The notes below the pieces were generated by a model. It was not told where the DNA came from, did not search any database, and saw nothing but the letters and a program-made list of their open reading frames with translations. A DNA stretch of 64,000 nucleotides from Psammoneis japonica. Its lineage: Eukaryota. The stretch spans positions 372,001 to 436,000 of the forward strand of contig QPGO01000013.1 in assembly GCA_008632985.1 (NCBI GenBank). The letters run 5' to 3'. Of this stretch, positions 17,361-60,129 are shown in pieces (positions within the stretch are counted from its first letter, which is position 1; each line of letters begins with the position of its first letter). A program made the translations under genes and the position numbers.

Positions 17361-17518
17361 CTCCAGTGTCGCGCTCCATGCTCAGCGTCTCAGCGTGCGC
17401 TCCGTTCATTTTTTTTGCATTTTTTTGCATTTCTGTCGCTCTGTCGCCTGTCGCCTGTCGTTCTTGCTATTCGACCTCGACACCCGCCCAAGCAAAAGTA
17501 AACAATCGAGCAACGACA

Positions 17519-18457: not shown

Positions 18458-18512
18458 AGAGACGTGAAGTAGAGTCGAACAAAAAACGGAATATCTATGT
18501 TTACGGGACCGG

Positions 18513-29699: not shown

Positions 29700-30241
29700 G
29701 AAGCTGCCTTGTTTGATCAATCGCGACTCGCCTCAAAGTCGCCAGGCAACCTTACAGTAAACCGAAACAAGAACTCCTTCAATTCATACTACAGTGTTAT
29801 TACATCTATGGAAGCTATCTTTAATTTACAGTGGTCTTCAATCCTTTTGTTTGTCGTTGGGCTCATAAAACGGTTTAACACTTGGCCTCGTTTCTATCTT
29901 AGCCCTCAGCGTAGGAACTACCACTCTCTTAATCGGATCATAAACATGAGGACGAAAGGCTTACAGTACCTAGAGTACCTCGTTGATGGGTTCGGAATCC
30001 TTTTTTTTGGCGATTGATTCTCTTCGCGCGCACGAACATGCCATTCATCTTGCTTCTGGCCGTCGATGCGAACTTCCAAACGGCCCAGATCTTGCCCAAA
30101 TTTTCAAATCGCGAGACGATACGAGGTGGCATGTTCTCTCTCGGCTGTCGGCTGTCGAGGCTTTGGCTGGACACAAAGACAACTCTTGCCGCGCACTGAC
30201 AAAGCAAACCCCGCATCATACGGTAGCAACGCGATATCACC

Positions 30242-31071
30242 ATGCCTAAGTTGTAAGTCCGTCACTATGACCCTCGTTTGCACCTTCGTGATGGTTTCTG
30301 CCGATGTTGGTTGATTGAAGCCTCGAATTTCGTGTTTCTGTACTTTTTCTGCACCTAACGTTCATTCTCTCTCTCTTTCACTACAGTGCCACTCGTATTT
30401 GCTGCTTTGGGCCGCCCTTTATTTCGTGCGCTGCCTTTATCCTGTCCATCTTTGCCAACGCTCGGTGCTACCTGGTGAACCTTGACAGCGACAATGCGCT
30501 GAGGCAATTTTTCCCCGAGCCACAGGCTGTGGGCTTGTGGTGTTATGAGGCGAGAAACGGAAACAATTACAAAATCAACGACAGCCTCAACTTTGATTCC
30601 AAGTTTGATGCCGCCAGAGGACTTGGTACAGCCACCTTGTCTCTCGGCTTGGTGGTTTGGGTCTACTTTCTCTTTGTACCCTGCGTCCGTCCCTTGGGCC
30701 AGCCCTGCGTGATTGCCTTTATCGCATTTCTCTGCTTTTGTACTTGTCTCTTTCAGGTATGTGATTATGAAGTACTGTTTGATGTATTTGCGTAAACTTA
30801 TTCGTGCTACTTTGCACTTAAGGATCACTCATGTTTCTTTTCTCTGACTCTACAGGGACTCGTCTTTCTCATCTTCAAGTCTGATGCCGTCTGTGCCGGA
30901 GAAAATCGTGGCTGCTCCCTTGGTACCGGGGGAAATTGCGCCATTGCCGCTTGCGTTCTTTGGTTCCTCTCCACCCTTATGACCTATGGCACTGCGCAGG
31001 AAGTAAAGGCAGCGCAACAAGCGGGTGGAGCAAGCGGAGTGGAAGATGCCGAGGACGCTGCGGAAGACTAA
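30242..31071 (+). CDS. Claudin-like four-TM membrane protein; 3 exons (30242-30252, 30387-30756, 30856-31071)
   Basis: GTAAGT...TACAG and GTATGT...TACAG introns give a continuous frame MPKFATRICCFGPPFISCAAFILS...GLWCY...FQ|GLVFLIFKS...CSLGTGG...stop, with four hydrophobic segments. Confidence 0.82.
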
Positions 31072-32189
31072 CTGTTATTCTCGGATATATGATACGGTCT
31101 TGTGTGTCAATTCGCGGACGAGTTCTTGTTGACTTATGGATCGAAAGAGTTCTTTTGGCCTGTGGATTCCTCAATTGTTTGAAGGCATTCATTCGATGTA
31201 GTAACTTGGTCCTAGTGTATGCCGTTGAATTTGTTAGTTTTGGCTTTATGACATTGCTTTTCGTGTTATTTCAGTTCAGCCTTTCAAGTGCTTGTGGCTT
31301 TGATCCTTGCTCCACTAGTGCAACTTGACAAGACCGACAGCGCTTACACAGAACGTGTGTGCAAACAGAAGTTTGACAAGACTAATTGTGGCAAACTCAA
31401 GCTATGTTGTGGACACCGAGTGATCTTAAGAGAACAAGTGTGCTGCACTGTTTGCTCCTGAACTGAGCCAATCGAAGTAATTAGAATCCTTGCTGTGCCT
31501 CACCACACTGGCGTGAGCCGATCTGGTCTCTTTTGTTTTCAATTTTTCTTGAAAATGAGCAGATCTGGCTTTTCAAGCATCAGTGAGTTTGGCAGAGTCG
31601 ATCTAGATGATCGGGTGTTCTGACCTGCTGTGGCCCTCACCAGACTGCAAGACGGATGTCATCACTTGTGAGCAGTTGTTGGACTCCACGGTTCAGCAGC
31701 GCTGCAGTCACAGTGTGAAAACTTCACTCAACAGAAAATCAGTGTCTTTCTGGGCAATTTTTGGAGAAGTTAGAGACCCACTCCATTTTCTCCAACAAGA
31801 GCAGATGCCCCACATTTGTCTGGGTTCATTGGCGCGCAGGTGTGCCATTGTGTGCACATGCTGCATTGTGTCAGAACACACTGCCATGAGCTGACTGTTC
31901 CAAAAATGCATTGAAACAAAAAGAGGAGAAGTCCAACCACCTTCCTTGTAATTTTTCCGTGTGCACTTTGGTGTGATTTTGTGACAAGAAGGAGAACAAG
32001 CAAGCATTTTTGTTCCCACAAGTGCACAGCTGTTGCACGAAAGATGCCCAACACAACATGAAAAAAGAAGTGTGTCTCTGTGGGTGCTCCTTGTTGCTTT
32101 GATGGACACATGAGCTCCAGCACTGAACAACAGCTCAAACTGGCAATCATTCTCTCACAGATCTGAAATTGTGTGGAAGTGTTTGGGGG

Positions 32190-32500
32190 CAAATTGTTTT
32201 GCTCTTTTTGAGCTTGTGCAATGGCATTGGAACATCGGGGTGCAATGCAGTTTTTGGAGCACAGACAGACAATGTTGAAGTGAAAGCAACACTGACAACT
32301 GTTGGCGACATGGTGAGTCCACATTTTTGCAACTCACCATGAAGAAGGTGGGTCTCATGCTTGCTTTTTAGCTTCTGCACCAGGGTGGCATGGTGATCAG
32401 CATGGAGCAGTGTTTGCCATCCACATGGCAAGTTTGGGAATTGGGAGCAAGACTGTTGCAGATCAGCTGGCAAGCCATGAAATCCCAACTTGGGAGTCAA
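32190..32500. repeat. Dispersed repeat; a second copy lies at about 46090-46200 plus 46650-46830, split by an insertion
   Basis: Shared blocks aagtgaaagcaa...gacatggtgagtcca and ctcaccatgaag...gtgggtctcatg...ctgcaccagggtg...gcaagactgt...ggcaagccatga. Confidence 0.8.
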
Positions 32501-33392
32501 AAAGGCTGGCTGAGAAGTCACCAAGAATTCAAAAGCAAAATTTGTGTCAGCAGATTGTGGCAAACACAAGCTGGCTGGATGAAGCGAACAAAGAGACAGT
32601 CTCTGGATGGAGGGCCTTGTTGCTGTGAGGAAGCAGCAAGGGTCTTCTAAAAGAGGATGTGAAAAAGTTGTGTCAGACCAGGAGAAACATTGGCATGCTG
32701 GGTGAAGATGCAACTGGTGAGAGTGTGGAAGCATGAAAGATTTGAAGGAGTGGGTGCATGACGCCATTGTCAAGTCAGGTTGACAGGCAGATGGATGTGC
32801 GGAGACCACAAGGAAAATGAGCGAGCATGTTGGAAGAGTCTCCAGGCTGGAGATGCAGGTGCTGGCATCTTTGAGGCAGGAGAGGAAACCAGAGGAGCCG
32901 GAACATCCATTGGGTGCAACCACATTGGAGAGGGACAAGGCAATCTGGGGAGAGCAGTGCAGTCACTGTGTGAAACAGGCAGGATGTGATCTGCAAGACA
33001 CAGAAGGTGAGGGCATTTGGCACAATCATGGGACAGCACATGAGAAGGCCATTTGCCATCACAAAGTCAAAGGAGTGTTGATGGAGTTTGCAAGGGTTGT
33101 CAAGGAGTGGGGCGTGGCAGCAATGTTGGAAATTCTCAAGTCAATCTTGTCAGATGCAAATGAGAGAATCTGCTCACATGTCCAGGCTGTCAAGGCTTGG
33201 AGGCAATTTGCACTCATTCATCAGGATGAGGAGAGGCACTTTAAGATTGTTGCAATTGGCTCACAAACATTGTTGACATGGTGGAAGGGTCCTGTGGCAG
33301 AGTCGTCCCAGCAGCACAAACACTGATGATGCCCTGGAAAGAGAGAAACAAGTTGTTGGCAGTGTTGCTCATGGAAGGCACAAAGGAACATT

Positions 33393-33770
33393 TGCAATGT
33401 GTGTTGTTGTGCACATTTTACATCTGCATGCACATTTTAATGTCATTGCATTTCAATCACACCAATGGTGGGTTCGTGCAAAGGACAGATCTGTCACACA
33501 GAATTGATCGGATGATGTTGAAAATTGCAAATGCAATCACTTGATGATGTTGACATCTCATGTGTCAATGGCAATTGCATCCAAACAATCTGTTGTCACA
33601 ATCAGATTCTTCAAAAGGCCTTTGGTTTGCAGAATCAGCACAGAAGCCTCAGGCCATTGAGAACTTGTTTGGAGAAACCCAAAATGATTGAGAAAAACCC
33701 AATCTCATAATTTTCATTTTTTGCACTTTGAAATGCTTTCATTTGCACACAAAAGCATTCACAGACAGCA
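33393..33770 (+). repeat. Gypsy 5' LTR
   Basis: Starts TGCAAT; aligns with 45075-45482; followed by a TGG PBS-like site at 33773. Confidence 0.85.
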
Positions 33771-33789
33771 GATGGTGCATGCACACCAC

Positions 33790-34700
33790 AGAAGGTGACA
33801 AGACAAAAATGAAGCTTTCACCTCATGTTGCTCACACCAAGTCTTCCTTCAAGCAGGAGAAAATTGTTCCAAAACTGCTGGAATCAATCTCTGAGCCAAA
33901 GACACTCAAACCAAGCCAACACCTCAAGATGGAGCAGTGCTTTCACCCAGAAAAGAAAGATGGCTGCACTTGCACTGTCAATGTTGAAATCACAAGAAGC
34001 AAGGCATTCCCAAGTGCATGGAATTCTTAAAGAACAGTGATCAACACTTGGTGGGTGGTCAGAACATCAAGCAGAAGCAAGCGGATGAGTTCCGTCTCAT
34101 GCGAGTGTTGTTGCAGGGAGACACTGCACATGCATTCAAGAATGGTGCTGCAAATGTTGAAGATGAAGAGAGCAAAGGAGTTTTCAAAAAATGTCAACAG
34201 TGCCTTGCAAGATGTGCCTTCCCAAAGAATGCACTTCACATTCAGAAGCATCATTTGCAGTGCAATCTCAAGAAACCAGCAGAGAGCATGAAGGTCAGGG
34301 AAATCACCGCTTGGGTCCAAGAAGTCAACAAAGACCCCAAGCTCCATCCTCCCTTTGAACAAGATCAGAGCATCAAGGAGGATGAGCTCAAAGATGTCCT
34401 CTGCAACCTTGCACCTTGCAAATGGCGGTGCCAGTTGACCCTTCAAGGTTTCAAAATTTTGAAACACACCTTCAACAATTTTTTCAAGTTTTTAGAGTGT
34501 CTGGAGGTTGCTGAGGATGTCTTTGACTCCATTCATGTCAAGGCTGATGTGCCAGCAACAAACCTGGATCAGAAGCCAAAGGAGAGATGGATCCAATCAT
34601 GGTCCCAAAAATGGTCGCCAATCTGGTGCCAAACAATCTAGTCCAACAAGTGGTGCAATTGTTGCAAAAAACCACTCATGATGTGGACAAGTGCTGGGTC
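33790..34700 (+). pseudogene. Gypsy gag, degraded
   Basis: FRLMRVLLQGDTAHAF...FPKNALHIQKHHLQCNLKKP...MKVRE, located between the LTR and the protease. Confidence 0.75.
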
Positions 34701-35099
34701 TGGGTCATTGAATGACTGGCAAAAGAATGCTGTGGAAATTACAAATGTGATCCAAAATGGCATCATTCAAATGGCAACTGCACATGGCCCCATTGTGACA
34801 ACAAAAATGCCACTCCCAGAGAAGAGTTGAATGCCATGGTTCTTCAGGCAGTTCAAAAAGCACTCAAGACAAGTTCTTCAAACAATGATTCAAAGCACAA
34901 GAGCAAGGAATGTGATTCTGATGCCCTTGGCAAAGAGAATTGTCAGTTTGAAAAAATGATGTGCAGCAATTCTGAAGAATGACTGGTGCAGCTTTAGGAG
35001 TCTTGCATGCCGCTGGACATCAGAAAGCCCAACAAGGGTTCAAAGCAATTCACACTGGTCCAGCAGTCATTGCTTGCATGAATGCCTCTTCAGGCAAAA

Positions 35100-37500
35100 C
35101 AAAGAATGAGCCTCTGCACATTCTCCTTGACAGCAGAACATTGTCAACCAGCACAATTTTGCTCAAGTTCACATGGAAACAGAGAATGAAGAAATCCGCA
35201 ACCAAAACTTGGGAAACCAAGGGTGGACTCTTCATGACTGACAATCGCTGTGCAACACAGTGTGCTCCACCTGAATTGACAAACACAAGATGACAGAAAC
35301 AACACCACATGTTGACAACACCCCTTCTTCTTTGAGTCATTATGATGTGATCATGGGACATGACTTGATGTCCATTCTTGGGATCACATTGGACTTTGCA
35401 AACAAAGAAATCAAATGGGAGGAAGCAACTGCACCTGTGAAGAATGTTGATGCACTCTTTGATGCCGATGTGTTCAAGTTTCAAGTTGATTGCCAATCAC
35501 ATTGAGGAATCTCATGCCATGATTGGTCTTGATGAGAGGGTCAATTGAGTCCTTGACTCAGATTGTCACGCAGCTGTTGACCTTGACAATGTGACTGCAG
35601 CAGCAACTCATCTAACTCCAGAGGAGCAGAAGCAGCTGAACTTCCTCCCAGAAAGATTTGAAAACCTTTTTGATGGTTCTCCAGGTGAATGGACCGTGAA
35701 ACCTGTGGATCTCAAGCCAAAATTGGATGTGATTCCACATCATGCAAAGCCATTTCCCATGCCACAAGCCTTGGAGGCAACTGCTGGAAAGGAAGTTGAA
35801 AGACTGTGCAAGCTGAAAGTCTTAAGAAAAACAAATTGTTCCAAATGGGCAGCTCCAAGAACCTTTGTTCAACCAAAGAAAAATGGTCAAGTTTGGTTTC
35901 TGCCCAACTTCCGTGAACTGAGTGAGAGGTTGACATGCACTCCATTTCCTCTGCCTGATGTTCAAGACATGCTGCAAAAACTTGAAGGTGTTGTGCATGC
36001 CACTTCACTTGATTTGAACATGGGATGCTGCCATGTCAAATTGACTCTGCGCGCACATTGCTTGTGCACTGTCATCATGCCTTGGGGCAAACATGAGCAC
36101 TGCAGATCACCTGCGGGCATCTGTGGAGCTCCAGATGTCTTCCAAGAGCACACAAGTGAACTCATGCTGGCAGGTCTGGAGTTCATCAGAACTCATGTTG
36201 ATGACACACTGTGTCCCACAAAAGGTGATTTTTGAGACCATCTCAAAAAGCTTGAAACAGTGTTCATGCACCTTGAGCAAGCTGGGTTGAAAGTCAATGC
36301 CAAAAAGTCCTTCTTTGCCAAACCCAAAGTGGACTGCCCAAGCTTTCATGTCACCTGCAATGGCGTCAGTCTGATGCCAAAGAAAGTGGAGACAATTCAC
36401 TCAATTGCTGTCCCCAAAACTTGCAAGGATTCCACAGTCACAAGTTAAATGGAGTGCAGACACACTGCACTGCAATGGAAAAAGAACTTCTGTCCACAGT
36501 GGAAACACTCAAGGAATTCCGGAATGTGCTGTTTGGCCCACAGATCAATGTGTGTGTGGAGCACAAGAATCTCACCCACAAGAACTTCTCACAATGGACA
36601 GAGCCATGTGTTGGTGACTGACAATGGAAGAATGCAGCCCCAAATTAATTTGCCTTGAGGGCAAGGCAAACATTGTCGCAGATGCAATCAGCCAACTTGC
36701 TGTGAAAAAAATTGAACCCACTGTGAAAAACCTGAGCATCAAAGATCTGGCTGAGAAAGTTGCACCCAGATCCCATGACACTGTCTTTCCATTGATGTGC
36801 AAAGTTCCAGATGCTGAACAAAAGTGGGACAAAGACATTCTCTCCAAATTGTTGGATGCAACACATCACATGAAGACTTTTTGTGGAGGCCAGCAAGACC
36901 GGTTGCTCACGTGTCACAAGGGAAAAATTGTTGCACCCAAGACGTTGCAAAAAGCAGTGACAGATTGGTGCCATGCACACCTTCCATGCCCAGGCACAAA
37001 TGGAGCTAAAAAAAACAATCTTGCAAGACTTGTGGTGGTCTGCCTTGTGTGAGGACATGTGAGATAGAATGCATGTCAAAATGTGAAACGTGCCAAAAAT
37101 TCAAAAAGAAACAGAAAAAATGTGGACATTTGCACCCCAAGTGTGCAGAAGCAGTGCCACAGGAACGGCTGTGTGTGTGGATCTTGTTGGACAATGCAAA
37201 ATGCATCACAATGGAAAGAAGAAACCCCAAGTCCTGAAATGTTCAACAATGATTGATCTGGCAACAGGATGGTTTAAAGTTGTGGAGATTTCAAATGAGA
37301 AATCCACAACCATCGCTGGATTGTTAGAGCAGACATGGTTGAGCAGATGTCCTTGGCCATCGTTGGTTGCACATGACCATGGAAGTGAGTTCATTGGACA
37401 CCAAATTTCAGAAACACAGTTGAAGGGGGCTGGGGCACAAAATGCAAGCCCATGACCACACAAAATCCACAGTTGAATGCAGTTGTTGAGTGTGCCATCA
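35100..37500 (+). pseudogene. Gypsy pol (protease, RT, partial RNase H, integrase N-half); continues at about 44598-45045
   Basis: ILLDS and YDVIMGHDLM (PR); SLDLNMGCCHV, PWGKHEH, RTHVDD (RT, YxDD mutated); EKELLSTVETLKEFR (RH); CETCQK, TMIDLATGWF, HDHGSEF (INT); HQVLGNML...TPGQLVFNREMI resumes at 44598. Confidence 0.92.
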
Positions 37501-40500
37501 GAGGCTGCAACACAGTGGCTTCCATGTTCCTCTGCAATTTTTTTTAATGTGCGTCATTGTCAAAATTGTCAACAAGCCAAATTTGAAAACTGCTGGCAAC
37601 AGTGCTCAACAAAGTGCAATTGTTTTGTGCATTTCAGCTGATGTCTCATCAGCTTTTCTTGCACAAGCTTCAATCAAATGCATGCAATGTTTAATTTGAT
37701 CAGGACTGGCATCTGTTTTGTGTGATGCATGGTTTGGTTTCCTTTTGATGGTCATCAATTTGAACTTGGTTTCAACTTTGGCCTTCCCCAACTTGCATGC
37801 ATGTGTCTTTGCATGTGTGCAGTCTACTTTGTGCATGCATGTGACCCACCCTCATTTTAAATTTCTTTTCATGCTTCCCAGTTTTGTGCAGCCCATTGGT
37901 CTGTGGTGTTTTCAGCATTTTTTTCACATGCACAATTTTCTGCACACTTCATGATGGCACCCCCTCTCCCCAAAAGTTGAAAAGCAAGAGCATGTGCTGT
38001 TGTGATTCATGTGGATTTTGTGTGTGGTCACAAATCTGCAAATTGACAACCCTGCCATGGTGGTGAAAGACTTTGCCCCATTGGCCGGCGATGACAGTGG
38101 CTCAATGCATGGTGAGACCTGCCATCCTTCTGGTTGGTCAAGACAGGTTTTGATTGGGGTGTTGCTTGAGTTTCATGATCACGAGTGTGCTGTCACAAAT
38201 CTGCCACATCGAAAAATCATCACCCAGAATGCTGAGCCACTGGTGTGTTGTTGTGTGCACGCATGACACAAACTTTTCTGCAGCATTGGTGCAATCGTGC
38301 ATGTCAGAGTTTTGCACACAGAATCATTGCAAGTCACCACAAATGACACTCTCCAAACAAGGCATGTGCAAAAAGAGGTTCATTGATTTTTGACATGTTT
38401 GCCAACGGTGCATCTGTCTCCTCCAATTTTTACATCCAGATCCAGAAAGACTGCAGGTGGTGCTTGTTCTCACAGCTCTCAGAATCACATGCATGCAATG
38501 TTGCTTGCCACAAATGACATTCTTCAAACAAGGCATGCACAAAAAGAGCTTCATTGGGTTTTTGATGTGTTCACTGACATTGCGTCCATCTTCTCCAATT
38601 TTTGTCCAGATTCAGAAAGACTGCAGAGGTGGAGAGTGAGGAGGCAACCCATTGGAGGTTGCCTGAGTTGTTGAGCTCATTTTTAAATGCCTCCCAAGTC
38701 TCTCTCCACTGTTTTTGGTCCATGCTCCAAATGATGTGTCATTGATGAACCATCTGCAGCACAGGAGGTGCGGGGCAAACTCAGCCATTGCAGTGTGACT
38801 TTGTCATTTGCGCAGTGCCTTGCACAGTGTGGTGCACATGCAGGTGGTGCTTGTTCCCACAGCCATTCTGGCAAGTGTGTTCTGTGGCACTCAAGATGTT
38901 TTTTGCTTGCTCGAGTGCTTTTCTTTCTGTGTTTTCTTTGAGTTGCAGAGGTGGAGCTGGGTGCTTGACGTCTTGCACCACAAACTGGTGTCCACTTTGC
39001 TCCAGAATCAGTGGTGCCGGATGCTCTCACAATGTGCTCTGCACTTTTTGGCAATGAACAAAGTGGATCAGAGCAACAGTGCTTTTGCTGCAAACTCAAC
39101 TGCTCCAGAATCAGCCATGTTGGATGCACTGGCAAGTCTGTGTTGCTGTTCCTGTGGGTTGTGTTGGTTCATCTGTGTCATGCTCTCACACTGTGTTCCA
39201 CACTTTTTGGCAATGAACAAGGTGGGTTGGAGCAACGACAGTTCAAATCATGGAACAGCAGCTCCTGCTGCAAACTTGCCTGCTCCAGAACCAGTGGCAC
39301 AGGATGCACCGGCAAGTCTGTGTTGCAAATCCTGTTGGTTGTGTTGGTTCATCCACGCTGTGTTTTCACAATGTGTTCTGCACTGTTTGGCAATGAACAA
39401 GGTGGCTGCTGACAGCAGCACTTTAAGAAAGAGAGCTGCAACTGCTGCTGCAGACTGGTCTGGTGTTGTCTCTGTCAGCATCATTTGGGTTTGATGAAAA
39501 CAACAAAATAGAATGCTCGTGGTGCAATGCAAATGACTCTAATTTGCAGGTTTTGCAGGAACAGAGGGTGGGCGCTTGTTGCTGTTTCACAGCGAAACAT
39601 GTTTTCCTCAGGGGGGGGGGGGGGGGGGTCATCTGTCACAGTTGACATTTTGTCACCATGTGCACAACTGATGAGGTTGGATGGTGTGTTGTTGTTTTGA
39701 AAAAAAAACAATCACTGTGGGAAAGGAGTGTCAGCCTGTCTATCCTGCGATGGACAGACTGTGCGCAGATGATGGCAAGACCATCTAGACAGACGAGCAG
39801 ATCTCTTAGATCTGCCTCTCACTTTCTCATCCACCAGCACTCGTGTCATCACAGTCCCAGTGCTTGGGGAGTCTTTCATGCCTCTGTCATCATTGACCTT
39901 TGGCATTCTGTCAGGTTGTGGCCTTGCGCTGTGCCACAGAACTCTGCACCAAGTTTTCTGTCTTGACCCATTTGTTTTGTGAGCCGTCCGAGGACCGAGC
40001 AAGCCTCATCGTCTGTTCCAACAAAATTTTTTTCTTGCTTTCCCGGCATTTTTCACGATCGTAGAAACACACCAGATTTCCATGTGTGCATGACCAAAAA
40101 TGCCCTCACCAAGTGAAACCATGGCATCTCCGACCTTGCAAAGGGCGCTCCGACGTCCATTGCAGAGATCTGCTGTGACTTTCAAGAACATGCAACGATG
40201 CCTCATTTTCACACGGCTTTGAACAAGATGCACGCGGATTCAATGTTTGATCTGGACCTGTTCTTTGACGATCCAGAACACACTCAACCGAAGAAAGATT
40301 TTGTTGACCTGTTTTGAGATCACCTCATCAACACGGCCTTCCCACCTTGCACGGTTCATCCTGCGGACATGCAGCCCATCAAGACGATTGTGGATCAAGC
40401 TGCGTTCTGCATTGTAGACTCTGCCAGGCCTTGTGCGATCCACATGACGCCCACATCTCTCTCGTCAATCATCAAGACCAATCTCCAGAACCACGACCAA

Positions 40501-43500
40501 ATCACATGCATCATCATCTCTGCACACAACATTTACGTTGACCCCAACATGATGTGGAATTACAGAGATTGGAAAGAGTTTTCTCTTTTCCTGCATGCAT
40601 CCAAACAAGCACCTGCGGCTCCACCGTTGTCGACCACGAATTCTTTGTTGCATTGCATGGACGATTTTGTCACGGCTCTGTGTGACGTTGTGCATGGTGA
40701 TGCACAGCCACATTCAACAGCTGTTGGGCATTGTGGAGGTGCTCCCACGCATGTCACATCCAATGTCAACCTGAACAAGAATCCATGCTTCTTCCAGCAA
40801 CAAACAGATCTTGCTCCTTGACCAGTGCACACGATCTTGTCAGGAACCGGCACAGTTCCCCATCCGTGACTACGCCACTCATTGTGACTGCCAACACATC
40901 TTCTGGAGACTCCACTGCAGCTGTTGTGTCTGTGGTTCAAGATGCAACTCTTGATGCCAAGGCCACTGGCAAGAGTGACATTGGTTCTCGTGTTTGGGTC
41001 TAAGAATCTAGTTGCCGTCACTCCAAGTTGCACCCCATCTCCACGAAGGGTGTTTTCCTTGGTTGTTCATCTGACACCAACAAGCATGTCCCATGGCAAG
41101 ATCCTGACACCTGTCAGACCAAGATTGCCATGCACGTGTGCTTCAACGAGGGCATGATGACTCTCCTCGTGCGAAGGATTAATGCCATCCAGATCCTTCA
41201 CCTTCCGGTGGCCATGACGGATGTGATTCACCCTCTTTGCTCTCTTCCTCACCTCAGGTCTCTTGTTTGAGCAATCATGCATTTGAACTCTCCAGGATGG
41301 ACCCAGCTGCCGAGTCTGCCAGCCACACAGATGCAGATGTGACTCGCGCTGAGGACACATTTGTCACGAGTGCTCGGATTGATCCTGCAAATGCAAATGC
41401 ACTGGATGTCAAGCCTGCTGTGTCCATTGTGGTTCCTGCGAGCATGTCATCTACAGTTGTTGCTGCTGGCTCCCTGGCATTGCATGCCGACTTGGCAGAA
41501 CTTCCCCTTGACGTCAAGAAGTTCCTGCTTCAGTCCCCCAGCAGCTGTTGTGATCATTCCATTGATTCATGCCAAGGTGGTGTCACTCTTAAGATGGAGG
41601 ATTTGTCCTCTCTTTCCAAGTGTGTGCCAATGACACCAGCACCTCCTGCGCCGTTGTTGTTTGATGCGGATGACCGCTGTCACCACATGGACAGTTGCCC
41701 AGTTCCCTCGCCTTTGGTTTTTTGGCTCGGCCGTCATTAACTTCGGATGCATGATGCCGCCAATGCTTGTGTTGTCTGAACAAGAACGATCATAGCGGGG
41801 TGATTGTGAAAGAGGGCCATCGAGCTTTTTCATCTTCCGCTGTTCCACCTCTTCCATCTGACGGGATGGCTGTCATCGACACCACCTGCATGAATCTGAT
41901 GGCTCCGGTCACGTCCACCCTTGCAGATGACGATCCAAGTCTTCCTCTTCAGGAAATGTCAAAACACAGTGCCAAGCAAGCGAGTGAGTTGGCAAAGAAT
42001 GCGATCAATTGTGGAGCTGCATCCATGATGGATGTCTCTTTGCATGGCACTTCAGATCGAATGGCACTCACTGTGCATCCATTTTCTTCCAACATGGACA
42101 ACACCTGTGGTTCTGCCACCTCTTCTCACTCAAATCTCCTGGTTGGATCGAGGTGCACTGCATCTCTTGGCTCAAATGGTGTGTTGAATGTGGCATTTTT
42201 TTGCCATCTCTGCCGTCATGGTGACACTCGCATCTCGCAGTTTTCGCGATTGCTTTTGAACAATTGTGCTGCGAGACATGTCCAAGACTCGCCAAAATGT
42301 CTTGATGAACACTTTTGTTCATTGCAGAGCGACCTTCGCTGTCATTGTCATCCAAAGACTGCGTCGCTGACCGCGACCACCCCAACCCTTTTGATGATTT
42401 CAATCGCAAACCGCGATCAACCGATGGATCGCTTCTGCCCTTTTTTTTTTTTGAAGAACCCTCGTCATTGACGATGTTTCCACCAATGGCATCTGCTGCG
42501 GTTCTTCATGCGCCTCTTTGCCGTCCAACTGAGGCTCACATTGTGATCTCCCCGTGCTTCTGTTGGGACTTTCCCATGGCTTTAGCACATTTGCTCGATG
42601 GACTCACTCCTCCCAAGAGCGTTGCATTGCCGACCATTCTCCAAGTTGCACCTGATCCTCTCCATCCCATGCACGTTGACATTTCCATGCTGATGCAAGT
42701 TCGGCTGATTTTTGTGTTGACTGATCCATGTGTTGCTGTTCTTGGAGAACCGACGACGTGCGCTGAAGAAGCGCTTGGTGCGGCTGCTCAGATGGATCCC
42801 AGGAATGCCAAAGCATTGGACATCAAGTCTACCATGTCTGTCATGGAAGCTGCAGGTAAGCCACCTGCAGTTGTTGCTGCTGGATCCCTCGAATTTCCTG
42901 CCGAATCGATGGTGCTTCCTGCTGAGGTCCACGCCTGCCTGCTCGTGACCCCGAAGTTTTTCATTTGTGGCCATTCCATTGTTCCGTGCAATGATGGTCA
43001 TGTTTTCTCCAGTTGTGGCCTGTCCTTCATTGTCAAGGTTACACCCAAGTTGCTTGCCACATGTGCACCGCCGTCGTCTGTCACCCATGGACGCCGTCAA
43101 CATTACGTTGGTTGTCAAGTTGACTTGAATTCGGATTTTTGGTTCGGCCGTCGTTAAATTCGGATGTGCGATGCAGCCATTCCTTCACTTGTCCGAACAA
43201 GACCAATGGAAGCGGGGCAGTTGTGAAAGAGGACCATGGAGTCTTGCCATCTTCCGCTGGCCCGTCTCTTTCCTCTGTTGTCAGGATTGTTGTTGCGTCT
43301 AATTGCACTTTTCATGGTGCTCCGGACGTGTCCACCATCGCTGATGATGATCCTCATTTGCATGATCAGGGGAGGGATCCCCACAGCAAAGAGGCAACAC
43401 ACAAGGCTCATGAGTGTTTGCAATCCGGTGCAGACACCTTTTTTGGCGGCCAAGATTTGGACACACTGCTGTGCCTGCGCATCCGTTCTTTTCCGACGTT

Positions 43501-44597
43501 GAGGAATTTTGCGCTATTTTCTCTTTGTTCAATGAGCTCTACAAGGGCAAAGCAACATGTGGTGTGGGTGCAGCTCTGTCTCGTGGGTTGCTCACAATGT
43601 GTTTTTGCTGCATCCCATGCCATGGTGACACCATCAAGACCGCTGTGATCTTGAGTGGCATTTTTCATGGTGCTCCCAACCTGTCTGCCATCGCTGACAA
43701 TGATCCTGCATTTCCAGATCAGGGGAGGGATCACTGCAGTGCAGAGGAAGCATGCAAGGCTTTTCAGCATTCAAGATTCAGTCCAGACACATTGTTTGGC
43801 AGCCAAGAATTGGCAGCACTGATGTGCTCACCTGCCATGCGTCTTCGTCCTTCCAACGCTGAGGACTTTTACGCAGTTTTCTCTTTGCCCAATGAGTTTT
43901 TCAAGGGTGAAGCAAGATGTGGTGGAGGCATTGTTTTGTCTGGTGGGTTGCTTCCGCTTTGTTTTTGCCACATCCTGCACCATGGTGATTTCCCATCCGG
44001 CCCCATTTTGTTGGATGAGACTCAGCGACATTGTGGCTCGCCAGAATGTCCTTTTGGCTTTGATTGCTTGTTGATTGACAGATTTTTTCAATGGTTCAAG
44101 ACTCAATTGATGCGCAAGATTTGTTGGAAACTGCCGATGATTTTTTTGTCGAAGACTTCAATGGATCAACACACATGCACTGCGTGCAGCCGTTGCTGAT
44201 TTTTTGGAGATGTCACCGCCCTGTGTGGTGTGGTTCCTTTACGATTGCGTGTTGAGCGACCCTGGACACTGCTGCTTTGTTTTGTCATCCTTTGGTCTTC
44301 CTCTGCATCATCCCCATTCTTTGGTTTGATCTGCACTGTCTTCTATCTCGAGACATTGCAGATCAGGGGAGGGTGTCAGCCCATCTATCCTGCGACAGAC
44401 AGACTGCACACAGATGATGGCAAGACCATCTGGACAGACGAGCAGATCTCTCTGAGATCTGCCTCTCACTTTCTCATCTGCTGGTGCTCGTGTCATCACA
44501 GTCCCAGTGCTTGGGGAGTCTTTCATGCCTCCATCATCATTGACCTTCGGCATTGTGTCAAGGAGGTGCCGATCACTGTGATGTTCACTCCAACGGC
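37501..44597. mobile_element. Unclassified insertion splitting the Gypsy integrase; itself contains an LTR element
   Basis: Integrase breaks at VE-x-x-HQ, with catca on both sides of the break. Internal tandem duplications at about 38310-38630 and 39000-39410; G18 tract at 39611-39628. Confidence 0.7.
39729..44560 (+). mobile_element. Non-autonomous Copia-derived LTR element with ~185-bp LTRs and AGGAG TSD
   Basis: LTRs 39729-39913 and 44374-44560 (TGTCA...TGTCA); perfect 5-bp TSD AGGAG; PBS-like ggttgtggcc; PPT aggggaggg; Copia post-integrase remnant KGVFLGCS...KIAMHVCFNEG at about 41040-41155; no RT recognised. Confidence 0.9.
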
Positions 44598-45074
44598 ACA
44601 TCAAGTGCTGGGCAACATGCTGCACACATTTGACCTGCAAAATGCACCCCTGAACACAGACAATCCATTTTCTGGTGTGCTGTCAGCAGTGGCTTTTGCT
44701 GTGCACTCTGCGTGCCACAACACTGTCATGCAAGCCACACACCAGGACAACTGGTCTTCAACAGAGAGATGATTTTTGGTGTCCAACACATTGCTGATTC
44801 AAAGTTTGTCAGGAAACAAGAACAAGAAATCACAAATGAAAAATGCTCAAGAGAATGCCTGATGCACTCCACACATGCACAGAGTGGGAAAAAAGATTCC
44901 ACTCAAAAAAGACTCTCAAAAATTAGAACAGCCCTGTGTTGGACCACACGCAATGACAACGGTGCACACCAATGGCACAGTGCAGATCAAATGCAGTGAA
45001 ATTGTTGACACTGTCAATGTTCATTGCATGACACCGTTTGATGAATGACCCCAATGTGCAACTGGGGAGGCAAA

Positions 45075-45482
45075 TGCAATGTGTGCTGTTGCTTGCATTT
45101 TACATGCATGTGTGCATGCATTTTCCATTGTCACACTTCAATCTCTTGCATCAATCGTGGGTTCATGTGAAGGACAGATCAGTCACACAGAATTGATCGG
45201 ATGTTGAAAATTGCAAATGCGACAGCTCGACAATGTTGACATCTCATGTGTCAATGGCAATCACATCTGGACATGCTGTTGTCACAATTAGATTCTCCCT
45301 GTTGTCATCATGATCAGATTTTCTGAAAGGCCTTTGGTCTGTGGAAACAGTGTGGAAACCTCAGGCCATTGAGAACTTGTTCAGAGAAACCCAAAATGAT
45401 TGAGCACAATCCAATCTCATGATTTTCATTTTTCACACTTCGCCCCACTTTTGTTTGCACTCATTCTTCAAACACAGCTGCA
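45075..45482 (+). repeat. Gypsy 3' LTR
   Basis: Aligns with the 5' LTR; runs TGCAAT...TGCA; preceded by the PPT. Confidence 0.85.
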
Positions 45483-45739
45483 ACATGCAGAACTGCACAG
45501 AGTTTCACGCGTTCGACAGTGATCAACGTTGCTGCAGACAACTCCCACTCAGGGTTTCAAACCCCTGGCCTCCTGCCCAATGGTTGTGATGAACCACTCC
45601 GCTGTGAACTCACAACGCAGCACGCATGCAGACAAAAATGACAGCCTTTAAATGTCACAAAGGGCGTGACAAAAACAACCTTTTGTCTGCACACACACTG
45701 CACAGCACACGCTGGCATGTCCTGAAGGACCTGCACTGG

Positions 45740-45940
45740 CAGCAGTTTGCATTGGAGATTGACAACTGCCCCAATTTGGCCAAGGAGGCAATGCAGGTGT
45801 TGTGCACATGTGGGGCCAACAAGAAACATGAGGGAGCAAGCTTTGCACAACACAAGAAGAAGCAGATCAAATGCTGGAAACAATGTGACAAGGTCAGGCA
45901 TGTGAAGAAGAGTTGTCCTTTGCTCAATGAAAATGATGAT
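45740..45940 (+). pseudogene. CoDi-type Copia gag fragment with zinc knuckle
   Basis: IDNCPNLAKEAMQVL...ASFAQ...KCWKQCDKVRHVKKSCP (DNYP with Y->C). Confidence 0.6.
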
Positions 45941-46199
45941 CACCCATCTTTGGAGTCAGACGATGAAGCAAGCCACGTGTCTCAATGAAGCAGCTGACAT
46001 GGCATCAGCATCGGGTGGGGTGGTTTCCAGCTTTGTCGCCCTTCTTTGGCCAGCATGCACAAGGCCAGTCAATTGACAGCTCACCCACACAAAGGAGGGT
46101 GTTGGGCTGTTGGGCATGATGCAGCTTTTGAAGCACAGATGGACAGTGTCAAAGTGAAAGCAATGCTGATGACTGTCAGAGACATGGTGAGTCCATGTT

Positions 46200-46650
46200 T
46201 GCATGCAGCATGCATGCAGACAAAAGGTCACTTTGTCATGCCCTTTGTGACATTTAAAGGCTGTGACACGTCGCCGTGATGCATTGACTCTCATTGGCAG
46301 CTGTGTGTTGCACTCCTCCCCATGCGTCACGTGTCCATGCGGCTCTTTGCCAACGTGTGCTGACACTGCACGGTTTTGGCGGAACAGTGTGGGCATGTGC
46401 GAAGGAACACACAGAACTGCACAGAGTCCCACGTGTTCGACAGTGATCAACGTTGCTGCAGACAACTCCCACTCAGGGTTTCGAACCCCTGGCCTCCTGC
46501 CTGATGGTTGCGATGAACCACTCCGCTGTGAATTCACAATGCAGCATGCATGCAGACAAAAGGTTGTTTTGTCATGCCCTTTGTGACATTTAAAGGCTGT
46601 AACACGTCGCCGTGACACATTGACTCTCATCAGCAGCTGCATGTTGCATG
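46200..46650. repeat. Partial tandem duplication (~340-bp period); related copy at 45483-45690
   Basis: 46205-46313 matches 46541-46650, and 46410-46560 matches 45488-45638. Confidence 0.85.
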
Positions 46651-47947
46651 CAGCTCACCATGAAGGTGGGTCTCATGGTCACTTTCTGGCTGCACCAGGG
46701 TGACATGGCAATTGGCACAGACCAGTGTTTGTGACATGCATGCTGAGTTTGGGGATTGGCAAGACTGTCGCAGATTGGTTGGCAAGCCATGAGCAAAACA
46801 ATCCCAACAATTGGTGCCAAATTGAAGCACACACTGAACATCATCCTCAGCTCCACAAGAAATGGCCCAAAAGAATGCTGCTCTCTGAGTGGCGCCAACA
46901 TTCTCCTGACCTTTGAATGTCTTTTTCATGATGTGCTGATGGGGGTGTGCCAGCTCTTTGTGGATTTTGTGGATTCTCAAAAATTCAAATCAGCTGCACA
47001 CAGTTGAGTGCTCCTGTCTTTCAAAAGCTGCTAGTGCAGAGCCACTTTTGGTTTTGGCATCTGAGCCACCAAGTCTTGCAATTTTGCTTGTCCATTGCAG
47101 CTGCATTGTGTCAAGCAGGGGCCACTGCACAGCCACATGCCTGGAAAGTTTGGAGTCTGTGATAAAATCATGCAATGATTTGCCACACAATGGCTTTTTG
47201 TTTTTGCTTTTTAATGGCCAATGGCATTTTTTTGTCATCAATGGTCTCATCTCCACAACAACACAACCCTTGTTTCTTGGCATGTTGCCAAAGGAAAGGC
47301 ACGCAGGGCAAGTGAAAATGCTTTGTGATGTGCTGTTTGGTTTGTGCAGCGCTGCTGCCTGCTGCTCAATCTCCAGTTTTTTCATCCTCCAGAAAAACTC
47401 ACTGCCAAGCTTCAGGCATGGCTGGCAAGGCACTCAGTGGTGTTCTTGACAGCTTTCCATGTGCCTGACCTTTCACTTTTTCAACTCAGTCTTTTGTTGT
47501 TTGTTTGTTTGTTTGTTTGTTTGCAAAACAGCATGTTGCCACTTGCAACAGTGCCTTGGTGTGGCATGTGCTTGTTGGCAAAAAGGGCAAGTCACACAAC
47601 AGAAAAACCCTGTCTGATGTTTTGTGCTGTGCTGCTGCAGAGTGCATTTGCTGCTGCAAGCTGTGCAGATGCATTGCCATCAGCACATTTGATCAAACAG
47701 AAGCTTTTTGAGAAGATCACGGTGAAAATGTTGCTGTTCTCAGCCAAATGACAAAAAAGTTTTTGCATCAACCACACAGGCTCTGGCTGTGTTGTTGCAC
47801 AGGATGTTGGATCTCTTGTGTGTGGTGGGGCACCTGCACCTTGGCAAGGCAATGGAGAGCAGGAGCAGAGCAGTGCCTGCATCAAATCTTGTGGCAGTTC
47901 ACAACAGCGGTGGCAACCTTGTTGGTGTTGCAATGAGAGTGGGGGGG

Positions 47948-48337
47948 GACGCGTTCCAGCCCTAGGTGGGACTCCGTGTGACATTGGGCCCGTAGAATTC
48001 TACGTGCGAGCTCCGTAGTACGAGAATTTAATTAATGGATATATTTATCTTCAACATCAAATAAACGGCCAAGTTTGTGGTACAATTATGCCTCTTACCA
48101 CTCGACGTTGTTGCAAATGCGCCTGCCCTACGCGATTCTTAAGACATTATAGAATCGCGCTGTAACAAAAAATGTCAAAAGTTGTTGGACGGATCGCTCA
48201 ATAAGTGTACCGTAAAATGACACAAAATATCGAAAAAATCACGTAGAAATCTACGTGCGCGACATACGACGTGATTCAAAAAACTATCGATGTCACAGTT
48301 CAGCAGCACGAGGTCCCACCTAGACCTGGAACGCGTC
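47948..48337. mobile_element. MITE, 390 bp, ~31-bp TIRs, inserted in a poly-G tract
   Basis: GACGCGTTCCAGCCCTAGGTGGGACTCCGTG ... CACGAGGTCCCACCTAGACCTGGAACGCGTC; G7 on the left and G9 on the right; normal TA and CG content. Confidence 0.9.
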
Positions 48338-50146
48338 GGGGGGGGGACTGATGTGTTCTTGGAAATGCTGCAATTTGATGGCTGGTTTGCCTTGTTGAGC
48401 CACCTTGAGCACCCTCTTTGTGGGGCCACTGTCTGGGTTGATGAAGACATCAATCTTGAGGGGCACAGCCCAAATCCCAAGCCAAGAACACTCTAGAGTC
48501 ATTGCAGGCTGGCACCACACAGCTGTGCTTGCCTTGCTTGGCACGCGCAGATCAAGCCCACCCAAGGCTCAAAGTCAAGTGCTGATGTTGTGGTGGGTGA
48601 GTGCATGAGCACATCATCTCATGAAAGGCCAAAGTGATTGTCTGTGGAGAGTTGGCTCATTTTCATTGCTGTTGCTCTCCAAGCTTGCGGCATCAATTTT
48701 TCAATTTTGTTTTCATTTTCCTTTGTTTGCTCCACCCCACTTGACCCAAGAAACTGGAAAGAGTGTGCACAGAATCACAGGGGTGTCTGTCACTTTTTGA
48801 TGAAATCAGATGAGGAGCCATCCCCTCACCTGCAAAAAGGAAGGACTCATGATGGCAAGTGCACCCACAGCACCTGCTTGAGTTGGCATGCAATGCAATG
48901 CTGTGTGAAATGGTCGGAGGCATCGACACAGCAACCCCATCACCCATCAGAGACATGTGTTGGCTCAACAAAAACAAATGAGTGTGGTGCAGAGGATCAG
49001 GCTCCAAGCTGAAAGCAGAGAGAAAAAGTCTGCTCACCTTGCAAGTTGCAAGCACCACTGTGGAGCTGAAAATGCAGCTGCCTGTGCAAATGGAGAGAGT
49101 CATCTTGCACACNATGAAATCAGATGAGGAGAAGAAGCCCAAGCTGTCTTTGCCTGCAAAGAGCAAGGAGTCAGGATGGCAAATGTCCATGGATTCCCAC
49201 CTGGGTTGGCATGCAATGCAAAGCTGTGTGAGCTGATCGGAGGTGCAAATGCTGCAGGCCCTGTCAGAGGCACATGGCATTGGCCAAAAAACAAGAAAAC
49301 TGCTGTGGACAGCATCCTTGCCAATGGCAAAGGCCATGTGCAGGTTGGAGACATCTGGAGAAGGAAAGAAGGAGCCATGGGCTGAAATCAAGAATGTGGT
49401 CACCCTCACCAGCACATGGCAAGGTTGCAAAAAAGAGCAGCAGCAAAGAGAGCCCTGTGTGTTGGCATGTCCAGAGTTGCTCGACACATCCTTGACTCTA
49501 AAAACTTTGACTGCAAATTGTGCCACATGGCAAGAAAAGAGCAAAGCACATTTGGCCTGTTGTCACCCAGCCAGCAACAAGCAGCCAACCAAAGAGCAAA
49601 ACAAGGGTGTGACTCATCATTCCTCTCACAGACAGCTTGTGAAAGCAACTTGGCAGAGCACATGTGTGATCACTTTGCAGTGAGCCAACATCAATGTTGG
49701 AGCATCCAGACACAAGCAGGAAATGCAAGAGACCCAGAAGTGTGTCTGTTGAAGAGAAGGTGGTGCTTTGGATCCTGACTTGGTGGATTTGGTGACACCT
49801 GGTGAATGAATGTGCATTCATCACTGATCTCACCAACCTTTTTTTAGCTCACGCTTTGCAGCGAATCATCTGGTTTGTACAAACTTACGTTGTGGTGCCA
49901 GTGCACACCCTTTGTTGCCTTCACATTGTGAGAACAAAGTCATTCAGAGCTTCCAGGCAAACCACAGCAGAGCCACCACAGCAACCAAGACAAGCACAAC
50001 AAGCAGCACAGGAAACCTTGGAGGATTTCATTTTGGCGACATTGACCTTTTGGTTCAGCATTCAATCCAAAGAGAGTCAAGAGCACTGCACTCAATGCAC
50101 ATGGCACTGACCTCCATTTTGTCATTCAAAATGGGGAGCCTGCATC

Positions 50147-53100
50147 ATGAGTGGCAGGGGAGGCAGATTTGGCACTGAAGGCCATGGCAGTCACCAAGGC
50201 AGGGGCGGCAGAGGCCAGAAGTCTTGCTGCAACAAGAACAAGAAGACAAACCCCAAGAAGAGCTTCAAGCCAGAAACAAAGTTTTGCCCATCATCCATGA
50301 AATGCAACTCACATGCGGCATTCAAAGATGTCAAGAAAAAGGTCATTGACCACACACAGAAAGAGTGTGGCCAAGGCGTCCATCTGGCAAGGTCCCCAGA
50401 GAACATGGAACACATGGACTTCAATGCAGAGAGTCCCACACTGCAGATGGCAACTGCAGCAGTGCCAGCACTGGCTGATGCTGGCTGCCAGCAAATGGTC
50501 AATGAAAGAGGTTGAGAAGAAAGGCAACTCAAGGTGAGCACAAGACAGTCACAACAAGAAAGTGAGGAAGCTTGAAAACAAACAAGACTGCAGCATTTGC
50601 AGCAATGTCCTGGATGACTTTTGCCCCAAGCAAATGAAGCAAAGAGTGCAGGCACAGCCAACTTGCATGAGTGTCGGGGACGACCCAATTGAGCTGTTGA
50701 AGCTGATCAAATTGCTTGTGTTCAACTCTGTGAGGGGTTGATGCCCATTCCATGCACTTGCCAAGTGCCTGGTGTGCATGCTGGAAGTGAAACAACACAA
50801 GGGCAAGTCACTGAATGACCACCTGTCAAGATTTTAAGAATTGAAAAGATGCCACAAGCAGCAAAGGTCTTGGCATGAAGATGTTGCTGGATGGATTCAT
50901 CATGAATGCCAAGGAGTGCAAGGACTGTGCCAACCCAGCAGATGAGACAGCACTGACAGATGCTGCATTCAAGACATGCTGGACCACACATCTGTTCATG
51001 GAGAACAGGGAATGACAAACCCAAGGACCCACAAGATCAGAGTGTCATGCACAGAGCAGCAAAACAGTGTGCCATTGTTGTGGTGAGTCAAACCACAAAT
51101 CCCCAGACTGCAGATGCAAAGACAAGATCCCACAGAAGGATTGGTTCAAGGAGACTGGCAGGAAGCCAGATGCCAGGGGACACAGTCAAACACAGAGAGA
51201 CAAAGACAACTTGTCAGTGAGTGGCAACCATGTCAGTGTTGACACCTGCAGATCAAGTTGATCAGCGAGTTCTTGAGTTCTGGCAGAAGAAGCGTCACAT
51301 TGCATGAACGGCCCAAAGAGAGACTGGAGACAAGTTTGAGCCAAGCCAATGTTGGCATCAAGTTGGTTGAGATCATCCTTGACAACGTCTCTGCTCTCAC
51401 AACACAGCAGCAAGCCGGAGTCTTGTGCACAATGTGTGACCGGCAAGGGTCAAGATTGACCTGTGTTCATGAATGCAGGAACGGACACTTTGGACAAAGA
51501 CTGCACCATGCCAGGATGGGGTGACATGAATTTTGAATTGTGGAGTGTGACAGCAAATGTCCTGAGCTTGAAGAATGTGAGTTCCATCTGCCAGACAGCT
51601 GTGTTCAAAGTCAATGACATTGGGCTGTGCACATTTGTTCCAAGCCAGTGATTCCTTGACCATGCAAAAGAACTCTAGGAAGATGAGTTGCACACAAGCA
51701 TGCTGTCAAAAGAAAAGAAGGTTGCAAAGAAAACCAACAAGAAGCACAGGAGTGCATTGGGAACTGTTGTTCTGAGTGTGAAACAGTGTGTGAAGGGCTG
51801 CACCAAATGGGAGGTGGCGAGTGCTGAGGATGCACTCAGACTGTGCTGCAAGGCTGGAACACCCAGTGCGAGGGATTTCAAACTGTTTTTGTGGTCCAAT
51901 CAGGTGAAGAACCCACCCATCATCATGTTCCTGAAGATGTGGAAAAGGGATGGAATGGCGGCCATGTGGGGTCCACTGACAGACACACTTGAAGGCAAGA
52001 CCAAGCATGTGCGCCATTCCTGTGCACAAGGAACGACATCATTGCACCACCACCTGAGATCTGCAAGACGAAAAGAGAAGGTGTGACCCAATGCATTGCA
52101 GGCAGCATCACATGTTTGACAAGACAATCAAGCACAGATTGCAGATTGAGTGTGCAACTGTGGTCCAAGAAGCACGGGAACATTTGCAAAACCTTGGACA
52201 TGATTCTCAGACAGTGCAACATGGCATCATTTAAGGGGGGTCATCCCCGCGTTTATCCTAAAATTACCGTTGCATTTGAATAAGGTTTTTTATAGTGTTT
52301 ATTTTTGAATACAAGAATTGTTCATAGTCACACCCGATCGCGCACGAAAACGAGAACCATCAGCACCGCGATCGAAGCACGACGATGATGACAATCATCG
52401 ATGTTTCTCAAAAACGTAGTTTGCCGTCTACCAACTTTTCATGCATGTACAATCTTTGATACACAACAAACATAAAATAAATGAGAGTTGGTAGACGGAC
52501 CACCTTCGTCACAGACTTATGGCTTGTTGTTTTCACCACGGTGAAGCACGGTGAAATTCAGGAAAAATCATGCAAAACACGAGCCATTCGGCCGAATTCG
52601 AGCTAAAAAAAGTAGCAACCGACCACCCTTAAGATTGACTTCATTGAGTGTGATCCAGAGTTCAAGGACATGCTGGTGGAAGTCACGGATGGTGTGAATC
52701 TAGAGCTGGTGTCCACAAATGCCAAGGGTCATGGCATTCCTGAAGTTGAGCAAAGCATCCAAACTGTCAAGGAGCAAACCCACACTGCTGTGCATCACAT
52801 GCCAAACAAGACAGTGCCCAAGTTGGTCTGCAAACAAGCCATGATCAAGAACACTGTCAGGTTGAACAATGTGCACCCACAAAAGGAAGGGATTTCCAAC
52901 ACCAGCAGTTCACACACTGTCATGCAAAAAGAAGAAACCTTGACTGCAACAAACGTTTTCAGCTCAAATTTGGGGAACTTCCCACACTGAGAATGACAAG
53001 ATGAACACTGTGGAAGTGCGTGGTGTGGACAGCATCTGCCTGTGCAACCCTCCTTCCATTCACACAAGGGTGGTCACTGCACGGTGAACCGGCACATGGG

Positions 53101-60060: not shown

Positions 60061-60129
60061 AGCCTGGCCAGTCCTTGCACCTCTTCTGCCACACTGGTTC
60101 AGTGCATTGGAAGTGTGGGTTAGCCAGTG

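Follow-up and report, generated by a model that had tools for sequence, protein, structure and literature searches.

Differences between the long terminal repeats of a Psammoneis japonica retrotransposon point to probable decay of TpA and CpG after insertion

For the chlorarachniophyte Bigelowiella natans, the 2026 bioRxiv preprint by Mettrop et al. reports de novo mutations that are nearly all A-to-G or T-to-C changes at TpA; two integrated viral regions acquire them at ~6e-7 per site per generation, ~1000x the genome rate, and the hypermutation is confined to some of the mutation-accumulation lines (10.64898/2026.01.13.699255). Coding sequences low in TpA are enriched there for reverse-transcriptase and DDE-endonuclease domains, and the authors propose an ADAT2-like adenine deaminase as the agent; CpG, long terminal repeats (LTRs) and retrotransposons go unmentioned in the text (10.64898/2026.01.13.699255). 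Here we describe an LTR retrotransposon at 39729-44560 of a 64,000-nucleotide stretch of Psammoneis japonica DNA (the window: positions 372,001 to 436,000 of contig QPGO01000013.1, forward strand, numbered below from its first letter). Its two LTRs differ almost exclusively at pyrimidine-purine (YR) dinucleotides, most often by TG in one copy and CA in the other, which we call a swap. We consider that the differences probably arose by target-specific decay, after insertion, of TpA (fast) and of CpG (slower) in silenced mobile DNA. By analogy with B. natans this looks like a second case of TpA hypermutation, in the transposable elements of an alga that bears a PyShell gene, and with CpG decay in addition. 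In the full-text literature, a scope that leaves subscription journals and bioRxiv supplements outside, the B. natans preprint was the only report of this signature found.

As far as the available text of that preprint goes, the two cases are alike in the change itself (A:T to G:C at TpA, giving TpG or CpA according to the strand), in what is hit (foreign or silent DNA, with ordinary genes spared) and in the long-term trace, a depletion of TpA together with enrichment of CpA and TpG. A rate orders of magnitude above background is reported in that text, whereas here it is inferred from the LTR pair alone. They differ in that the host here carries a diatom-type pyrenoid-shell gene, and in that the DNA concerned consists of LTR retrotransposons and repeat domains tens of kb long with a rho(TA) of 0-0.1; the B. 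natans clusters are described as at least three 1-kb windows under a 5% cut-off of rho(TpA) <=0.43. Furthermore, CpG loss joins TpA loss here, which sets the locus apart from that text.

Three other systems invite comparison. Decay of methylated CpG in silenced transposable elements is similar in that CG in repeats becomes TG or CA and genic CpG stays near expectation, but it would cover part of the pattern only, since TA loss is faster and more complete here. In ascomycete fungi, repeat-induced point mutation (RIP) converts CpA/TpG to TpA and raises AT content (PMC2621366). The locus resembles RIP in that repeats and mobile DNA are the target, that the scars are dinucleotide-biased and made of transitions only, and that coding capacity is inactivated; the direction is opposite, with TpA destroyed, TpG and CpA increased and base composition about equal. 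Finally, editing of retroelements by APOBEC or ADAR enzymes also leaves deaminase-type transitions clustered in retroelements. Such editing is strand-asymmetric, producing G-to-A or A-to-G changes in the sense strand, and as a rule marks the two LTRs alike, whereas the outcomes seen here are strand-symmetric and differ between the LTRs.

The element lies on the forward strand between two AGGAG target-site duplications, both read directly (39724-39728 and 44561-44565). Its 5’ LTR (39729-39913, 185 bp) and 3’ LTR (44374-44560, 187 bp) are 88.8% identical and both run from TG to CA, each as TGTCA...TGTCA; a polypurine tract, AGGGGAGGG, read directly at 44365-44373, abuts the 3’ LTR. When aligned over 187 columns, the LTRs show 19 mismatched and 2 gap columns. 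Seven differences are TG/CA double differences; in four of them the 5’ LTR has TG opposite CA of the 3’ LTR, three are reversed, and the three reversed swaps are clustered within 8 bp (CAcCAgCA in the 5’ copy, TGcTGgTG in the 3’ copy). Three more are single YR transitions (one CG/CA, one TA/TG and one TG/CG), and what remains is one C/G transversion and one 2-bp indel with an adjoining T/C. The transition columns lie in YR dinucleotides in 17 of 17 cases, and the 95 non-YR columns show a single mismatch, located beside the indel. When 17 transitions were placed randomly on the LTR in 100,000 trials, the maximum was four swaps (five trials) and five or more never occurred, showing that the swap pattern is not due to chance. 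This realignment reproduced in full the list of differences given in an earlier sequence-only reading of the stretch, and the AGGAG duplication cited there is indeed identical on both outer sides. That reading had also held that targeted sites mutate far faster than background and that LTR-based dating would overestimate age. Both points stand: 17 YR transition columns face one transversion and one indel-adjacent change, and the 19 mismatches in 185 bp fall to 2 once YR transitions are dropped, so that dating by LTR divergence is inflated ~tenfold in this element.

The same swaps were seen in other repeats. Self-comparison of the window yielded 18 repeat alignments, some of them overlapping, with 87 isolated double differences, among which 59 were CA/TG and the next class, CC/TT, accounted for 4. 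Single differences comprised 29 of the CG/TG or CG/CA type, 12 of the TA/TG or TA/CA type, 57 other transitions and 75 transversions. No such excess is seen for the remaining reverse-complement pairs of dinucleotides (AC/GT once; AG/CT, GA/TC, AA/TT and CC/GG zero), and a general inversion of dinucleotides is thereby ruled out. This bears on the idea that each swap is a one-step dinucleotide or short inversion, for which it can be said that TG and CA are reverse complements and that the three clustered LTR swaps equal a single 8-bp inversion, CACCAGCA and TGCTGGTG being exact reverse complements. We nevertheless find it extremely improbable, as it sits badly with the absence of enrichment in the other pairs, with a swapped fraction that is flat with divergence, and with polarised data (see below) that give TA and CG as ancestors. 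Gene conversion may account for the 8-bp cluster.

The swapped fraction itself is informative. In the LTR pair 7 of 37 TG/CA sites are swapped; in repeats of 72-81% identity the fraction is mostly 13-25% (for instance 12/75, 12/55 and 7/47), with one value of 8%. From the frequencies in DNA of normal composition (TA+CG 9.57%, TG+CA 14.61%) the expected plateau is 19.8%. A fraction that stays flat with divergence fits a finite pool of fast-decaying sites that has been fully converted. It does not fit direct change between TG and CA at any site, because the fraction would then climb toward one half and a plateau near one fifth is seen. That the young LTR pair already matches the diverged repeats in this fraction upholds the earlier proposal that swaps are independent hits on an unstable ancestral dinucleotide. 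Two repeat pairs illustrate how CG fares: the pair 46203-46312 / 46539-46648 has four swaps and three CG/CG sites but no CG/x site (CG in one copy only), and the inverted-repeat pair 12154-12284 / 14147-14279 has 13 CG/CG sites, no CG difference and two TA/TG differences. The latter repeats are 131 bp long and 87.6% identical, and the ~2.1 kb between them is CG-rich and already TA-poor; these terminal inverted repeats may mark 12154-14279 as a DNA transposon young enough to have lost TA with CG intact.

To give the changes a direction, we turned to the neighbouring decayed Ty3/gypsy-type pol (35057-37490, forward strand; reverse transcriptase, RNase H and integrase), which was located by tblastn of 54 intact homologues (26-54% identity) and matches Pfam RT_RNaseH at 36277-36618 and rve at 37087-37452. 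The polarisation set comprised 533 codons with at least 70% agreement among at least 15 homologues. A single one of 29 conserved Tyr codons (TAY) was retained, while 12 now read Cys (TGY), 12 His (CAY), 2 Trp (TGG) and 2 Phe; 24/29 had gone to TGY or CAY. Conserved Arg codons (n=36) were retained in 10 cases (7 AGR, 3 CGN) and had become TGN or CAN in 19, namely 12 His/Gln (CAN) and 7 Cys/Trp/TGA (TGN), with 7 other outcomes. Other conserved residues were largely retained (Phe 18/20, Trp 12/14, Gly 29/36, Pro 27/35), and none of 49 conserved His, Cys, Gln and Trp codons had changed to one beginning with TA or CG. In a codon-boundary test on residues whose codon must begin with A, a retained first-base A was preceded by T in 0 of 83 cases, and a first-base A-to-G change in 14 of 24. 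The changes of TA to TG/CA and of CG to TG/CA are therefore real, directional and near complete in this old pol. Both ancestors proposed in the sequence-only reading, TA and CG, do decay, and the possibility it had held open against itself, that all such sites were ancestrally CG, does not apply in general, as TA decay is demonstrated directly.

The outcomes are also balanced between strands. Tyr sites gave 14 TG and 12 CA, Arg sites 7 and 12, and no runs were found among them (z 0.03 and 0.59). Neighbouring swaps up to 10 bp apart had the same orientation in 12 cases and different orientations in 14, and strand-coordinated (processive) editing found no support in runs tests (z 0.03, 0.59 and -0.12). 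Strand symmetry without runs speaks for a change in double-stranded genomic DNA and against editing of RNA or of a single cDNA strand; non-LTR repeats, tandem as well as dispersed, carry the same swaps, which likewise supports the earlier placement of the mutation in genomic DNA. Editing before integration could take a subtler form, with single-stranded minus-strand and plus-strand strong-stop DNA deaminated at different times. In principle the 5’ LTR would then read TG and the 3’ LTR CA, an orientation that fits 4 of 7 swaps and 2 of 3 single differences; however, three swaps and one single difference are oriented oppositely, the non-LTR repeats share the pattern, and whole domains, old elements included, are depleted symmetrically on both strands. 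We judge this explanation highly unlikely, and decay after insertion remains the reading that we follow.

The composition of the window points the same way. Scanned in 500-bp bins, which set the resolution of all borders given here, the window is bimodal and its borders are sharp. The element lies in a domain depleted in TA and CG and enriched in TG and CA (31501-48000, no strand assigned). Genic bins have a rho(TA) of ~0.5-0.9 and a rho(CG) of ~1, against 0-0.1 and 0.04-0.25 in repeat bins; in counts, each bin of the genic stretch 18001-31500 contains 9-37 TA and 18-40 CG, and each bin of the repeat stretches 0-5 TA, with 1-7 CG in the old parts. Altogether, the depleted bins (85 bins, 42.5 kb) contain 0.39% TA, 1.42% CG, 11.36% TG and 11.19% CA, and the normal bins (40 bins, 20 kb) 4.10%, 5.47%, 7.25% and 7.36%, respectively. 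The sum of TG and CA is 22.55% in the former versus 14.61% in the latter, the YR total is 24.36% versus 24.17%, and base composition is near equal. An unchanged YR total and base composition are what pure interconversion by transitions predicts. A fungal RIP signature, that is TpA enrichment with AT-rich repeats, was rejected on the TA content of depleted and normal bins.

TA is lost ahead of CG. This order follows from the existence of TA-poor but CG-rich bins without the reverse (eight bins have TA <=6 with CG >=20, and none has TA >=12 with CG <=10), and from the fact that the younger nested element keeps CG: rho(TA) and rho(CG) are 0.10 and 0.59 over the whole LTR element, and 0.05 and 0.15 in the gypsy-type pol upstream. 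By comparison, rho(TA) is 0.43-0.58 in seven gene-like open reading frames (ORFs) and 0.05-0.10 in these two retroelements. The TA dinucleotides that survive in depleted DNA (n=165, both strands) are preceded by T in 48%, C in 27%, G in 18% and A in 7% of cases, versus 24%, 22%, 28% and 26% in normal DNA, which suggests that the process prefers ATA/TAT and acts least readily on TTA/TAA.

We then considered the ancestry of the seven LTR swaps. The pair has one TA/TA and one TA/x site, three CG/CG and two CG/x sites, and the seven swaps. In a likelihood test that assumed independent decay with a single probability per dinucleotide class, assigning all swaps to TA gave a logL of -11.48 (p_TA 0.90, p_CG 0.22) and assigning all to CG gave -16.67 (p_TA 0.28, p_CG 0.76). 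The LTR counts thus favour TA over CG ancestry. The all-TA fit agrees with survival over the element: positions 40001-44000 contain 22 TA and 153 CG, corresponding to a survival of ~0.13 for TA and ~0.70 for CG relative to normal-bin frequencies. Since these figures predict that ~86% of swaps come from TA, we estimate that about six of the seven would be TA-derived.

That methyl-CpG decay did all of this, the seven swap sites having been CpG at insertion and 5-methylcytosine having been deaminated on opposite strands in the two copies, seems unlikely to us. CpG decay as such is real, as seen at the Arg codons of the pol, at the two CG/x sites of the LTR pair and at eight places where the family majority is CG (see below). 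Yet the three CG/CG and two CG/x sites give a p of ~0.25, from which ~0.2 CG-derived swaps are predicted and not seven; the all-CG assignment has the lower likelihood; the element keeps ~70% of its expected CG and ~13% of its expected TA; and TA decay is directly demonstrated by the Tyr codons and the codon-boundary test.

Several points weigh against a TA origin of most swaps. The 1182 contigs of the public run X1 that were aligned to the stretch vary at 1077 places, and the 40 of these that were inspected include no swap site; at 8 of the 40 a TG or CA of the element faces a family majority of CG, and at none is the majority TA (the converse, a TG/CA majority where the element has CG, is found at 2 of the 40). 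The eight CG-majority places show CpG decay in this element, and a lack of TA-majority places is also expected if every copy loses TA quickly. Furthermore, the likelihood test assumes uniform CG decay, and a mix of methylated and unmethylated CpG could rescue a CG origin. The all-TA reading requires ~14-16 ancestral TA in 185 bp, a rho of ~1.2 where genic values are ~0.5-0.9, and normal-bin composition leads one to expect ~3.3 swaps where seven are observed. Anecdotally, fragments of other copies among the X1 contigs read CA at the first swap site, TG at the second and TA where the pair has TA/TG.

X1 also bears on two remaining explanations. Modified bases at TA and CG of repeats might be misread strand-specifically by a long-read basecaller, and an assembly artefact of this kind would yield many swaps with few single differences and would be confined to modified (repeat) DNA. 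However, three X1 contigs with a word depth of ~60-66 match the interior of the element exactly over 300-476 bases, and X1 shares 0.70 of sampled 31-mers (its library type is unrecorded and it may be the source sample); we hold an artefact to be very improbable. The word depth summed over copies reaches 6084 and 10150 in the LTR bins, where single-copy contigs have ~60-66, and this gives a family of ~100-150 copies. With so many copies, ectopic gene conversion or recombination could have imported TG or CA states in tracts, and the orientations of the seven swaps do fall into three runs (+++---+). This pattern is within chance, though, there is no strand or tract coordination elsewhere (12 same versus 14 different orientations, runs z ~0), and the same decay would still be needed to create the variants, so that conversion is highly unlikely as the source of the pattern. 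Within the window, a purine/pyrimidine-recoded search found no diverged copy of the LTR elsewhere at >=52/60, and a 16-mer search allowing 3 mismatches gave weak matches only. A metagenome scan with an LTR 20-mer returned 0 matches, and with a 19-mer 55 loci, all chance matches covering at most 28 bp of the LTR.

The internal region of the element (39914-44364, forward strand) is apparently non-coding and contains old internal duplications, identified in the self-comparison of the window (41371-41860 versus 42785-43277, and 43305-43628 versus 43658-43988). Its ORFs of at least 90 aa had zero Pfam matches, the 54 pol homologues gave no tblastn match to it, and comparison with proteins 155-494 residues long found no homologue for the ORF at 42309-43154. 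Scans of the window for tRNAs and Rfam families found nothing, and no primer-binding site was identified behind the 5’ LTR, no tRNA set being available for comparison. The element is filed, on these sequence features, as a non-autonomous LTR retrotransposon, although heavy mutation could mask weak similarity. It appears to sit within an older, decayed gypsy-type element: directly 3’ of the insertion, 44566-45039 (forward strand) matches homologue residues ~905-1073 by tblastn and corresponds to the decayed C-terminal part of the integrase of a gypsy-type pol. The 9-mer ATCACTGTG flanks the insertion at 39710-39718 and 44572-44580, just beyond the AGGAG duplications, and the integrase segment ‘KPITV..NPQ’ is found both at ~37440-37480 and just past 44566. 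Because each of these occurs twice, two gypsy-type copies, or the two halves of a local duplication, may meet at the insertion site. Just upstream of the element are tandem repeats of ~170-180 bp (38337-38626 and 39021-39462), which carry TG/CA swaps too, five in 121 bp and seven in 226 bp. A run of ~20 G lies at ~39612-39631, and there is one N at 49113.

Loss of TAA and TAG leads to long false ORFs and an inflated ORF count, the 64 kb containing 66 ORFs of at least 150 aa. The long ORFs of depleted DNA (1-10500, 31501-56000 and 59001-62500) are almost without Tyr and rich in Cys and His; one of 271 aa at 32150-32962 has 0 Tyr, 18 Cys and 19 His. Annotation is affected as well, since domain models overlook decayed elements: the reverse-transcriptase ORF at 35549-36232 has zero Pfam match, yet its homologues are found down to an E of 4e-72. 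Two islands of normal composition lie within depleted DNA, at 48001-48500 (27 TA, 27 CG) and 52001-52500 (17 TA, 21 CG), and the bins adjoining both have 0-5 TA. The ORF at 48178-48492 (reverse strand) in the first has no Pfam match. Either protection of functional sequence or very recent insertion could account for the islands. The genic block of normal composition (17501-31500) contains pyrenoid shell, FHA, ankyrin, kinase and filamin-repeat ORFs, among them an intact-looking gene for a diatom-type pyrenoid shell protein at 28581-29699 (Pfam PF25192, E 1.9e-59). The PyShell family is reported chiefly from diatoms and haptophytes, and also from some further stramenopiles and from alveolates (10.1101/2023.10.25.564039).

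Altogether, the results suggest the following course of events. A non-autonomous LTR retrotransposon with two as yet identical LTRs would have landed in a decayed gypsy-type element older than itself, and would since then have resided in a silenced, repeat-rich domain in which two dinucleotides are destroyed far faster than others. TpA would become TpG or CpA by an A:T to G:C transition on either strand, and CpG would yield the same two products at a slower pace, as deamination of methylated C would lead one to expect. As the two LTRs would be hit independently, opposite-strand hits would leave TG facing CA, and same-strand hits would leave no visible difference. The leading idea for the fast component, drawn from the Bigelowiella analogy, is a targeted deamination of adenine in DNA at TpA that would serve as a defence against mobile DNA; it is this analogy only that suggests an enzyme of the adenine-deamination type. 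In the LTR pair, the only source of these figures, p_TA is ~0.9 per copy, versus 1-2 other substitutions in 2 x 185 bp. We would therefore entertain, tentatively and with doubt somewhat outweighing conviction, a dedicated TpA-adenine-editing defence that acts on silenced mobile elements both in an alga with a red plastid, of the diatom or haptophyte kind, and in the chlorarachniophyte B. natans, at a few hundred-fold above background and ahead of CpG decay.

If this is true, the defence would be old or widespread among marine protists. It would erase Tyr codons and TAA/TAG stops, and presumably other motifs that contain TA, and LTR pairs would in themselves record how fast it acts and which sites it prefers. 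If the pattern is confirmed genome-wide, TpA-targeted hypermutation would act on retrotransposons too, and in an unrelated algal lineage. Such breadth would bear on mutational editing as a general means of genome defence in eukaryotes, and a natural A-to-G activity in DNA at TpA would be of interest to enzymology.

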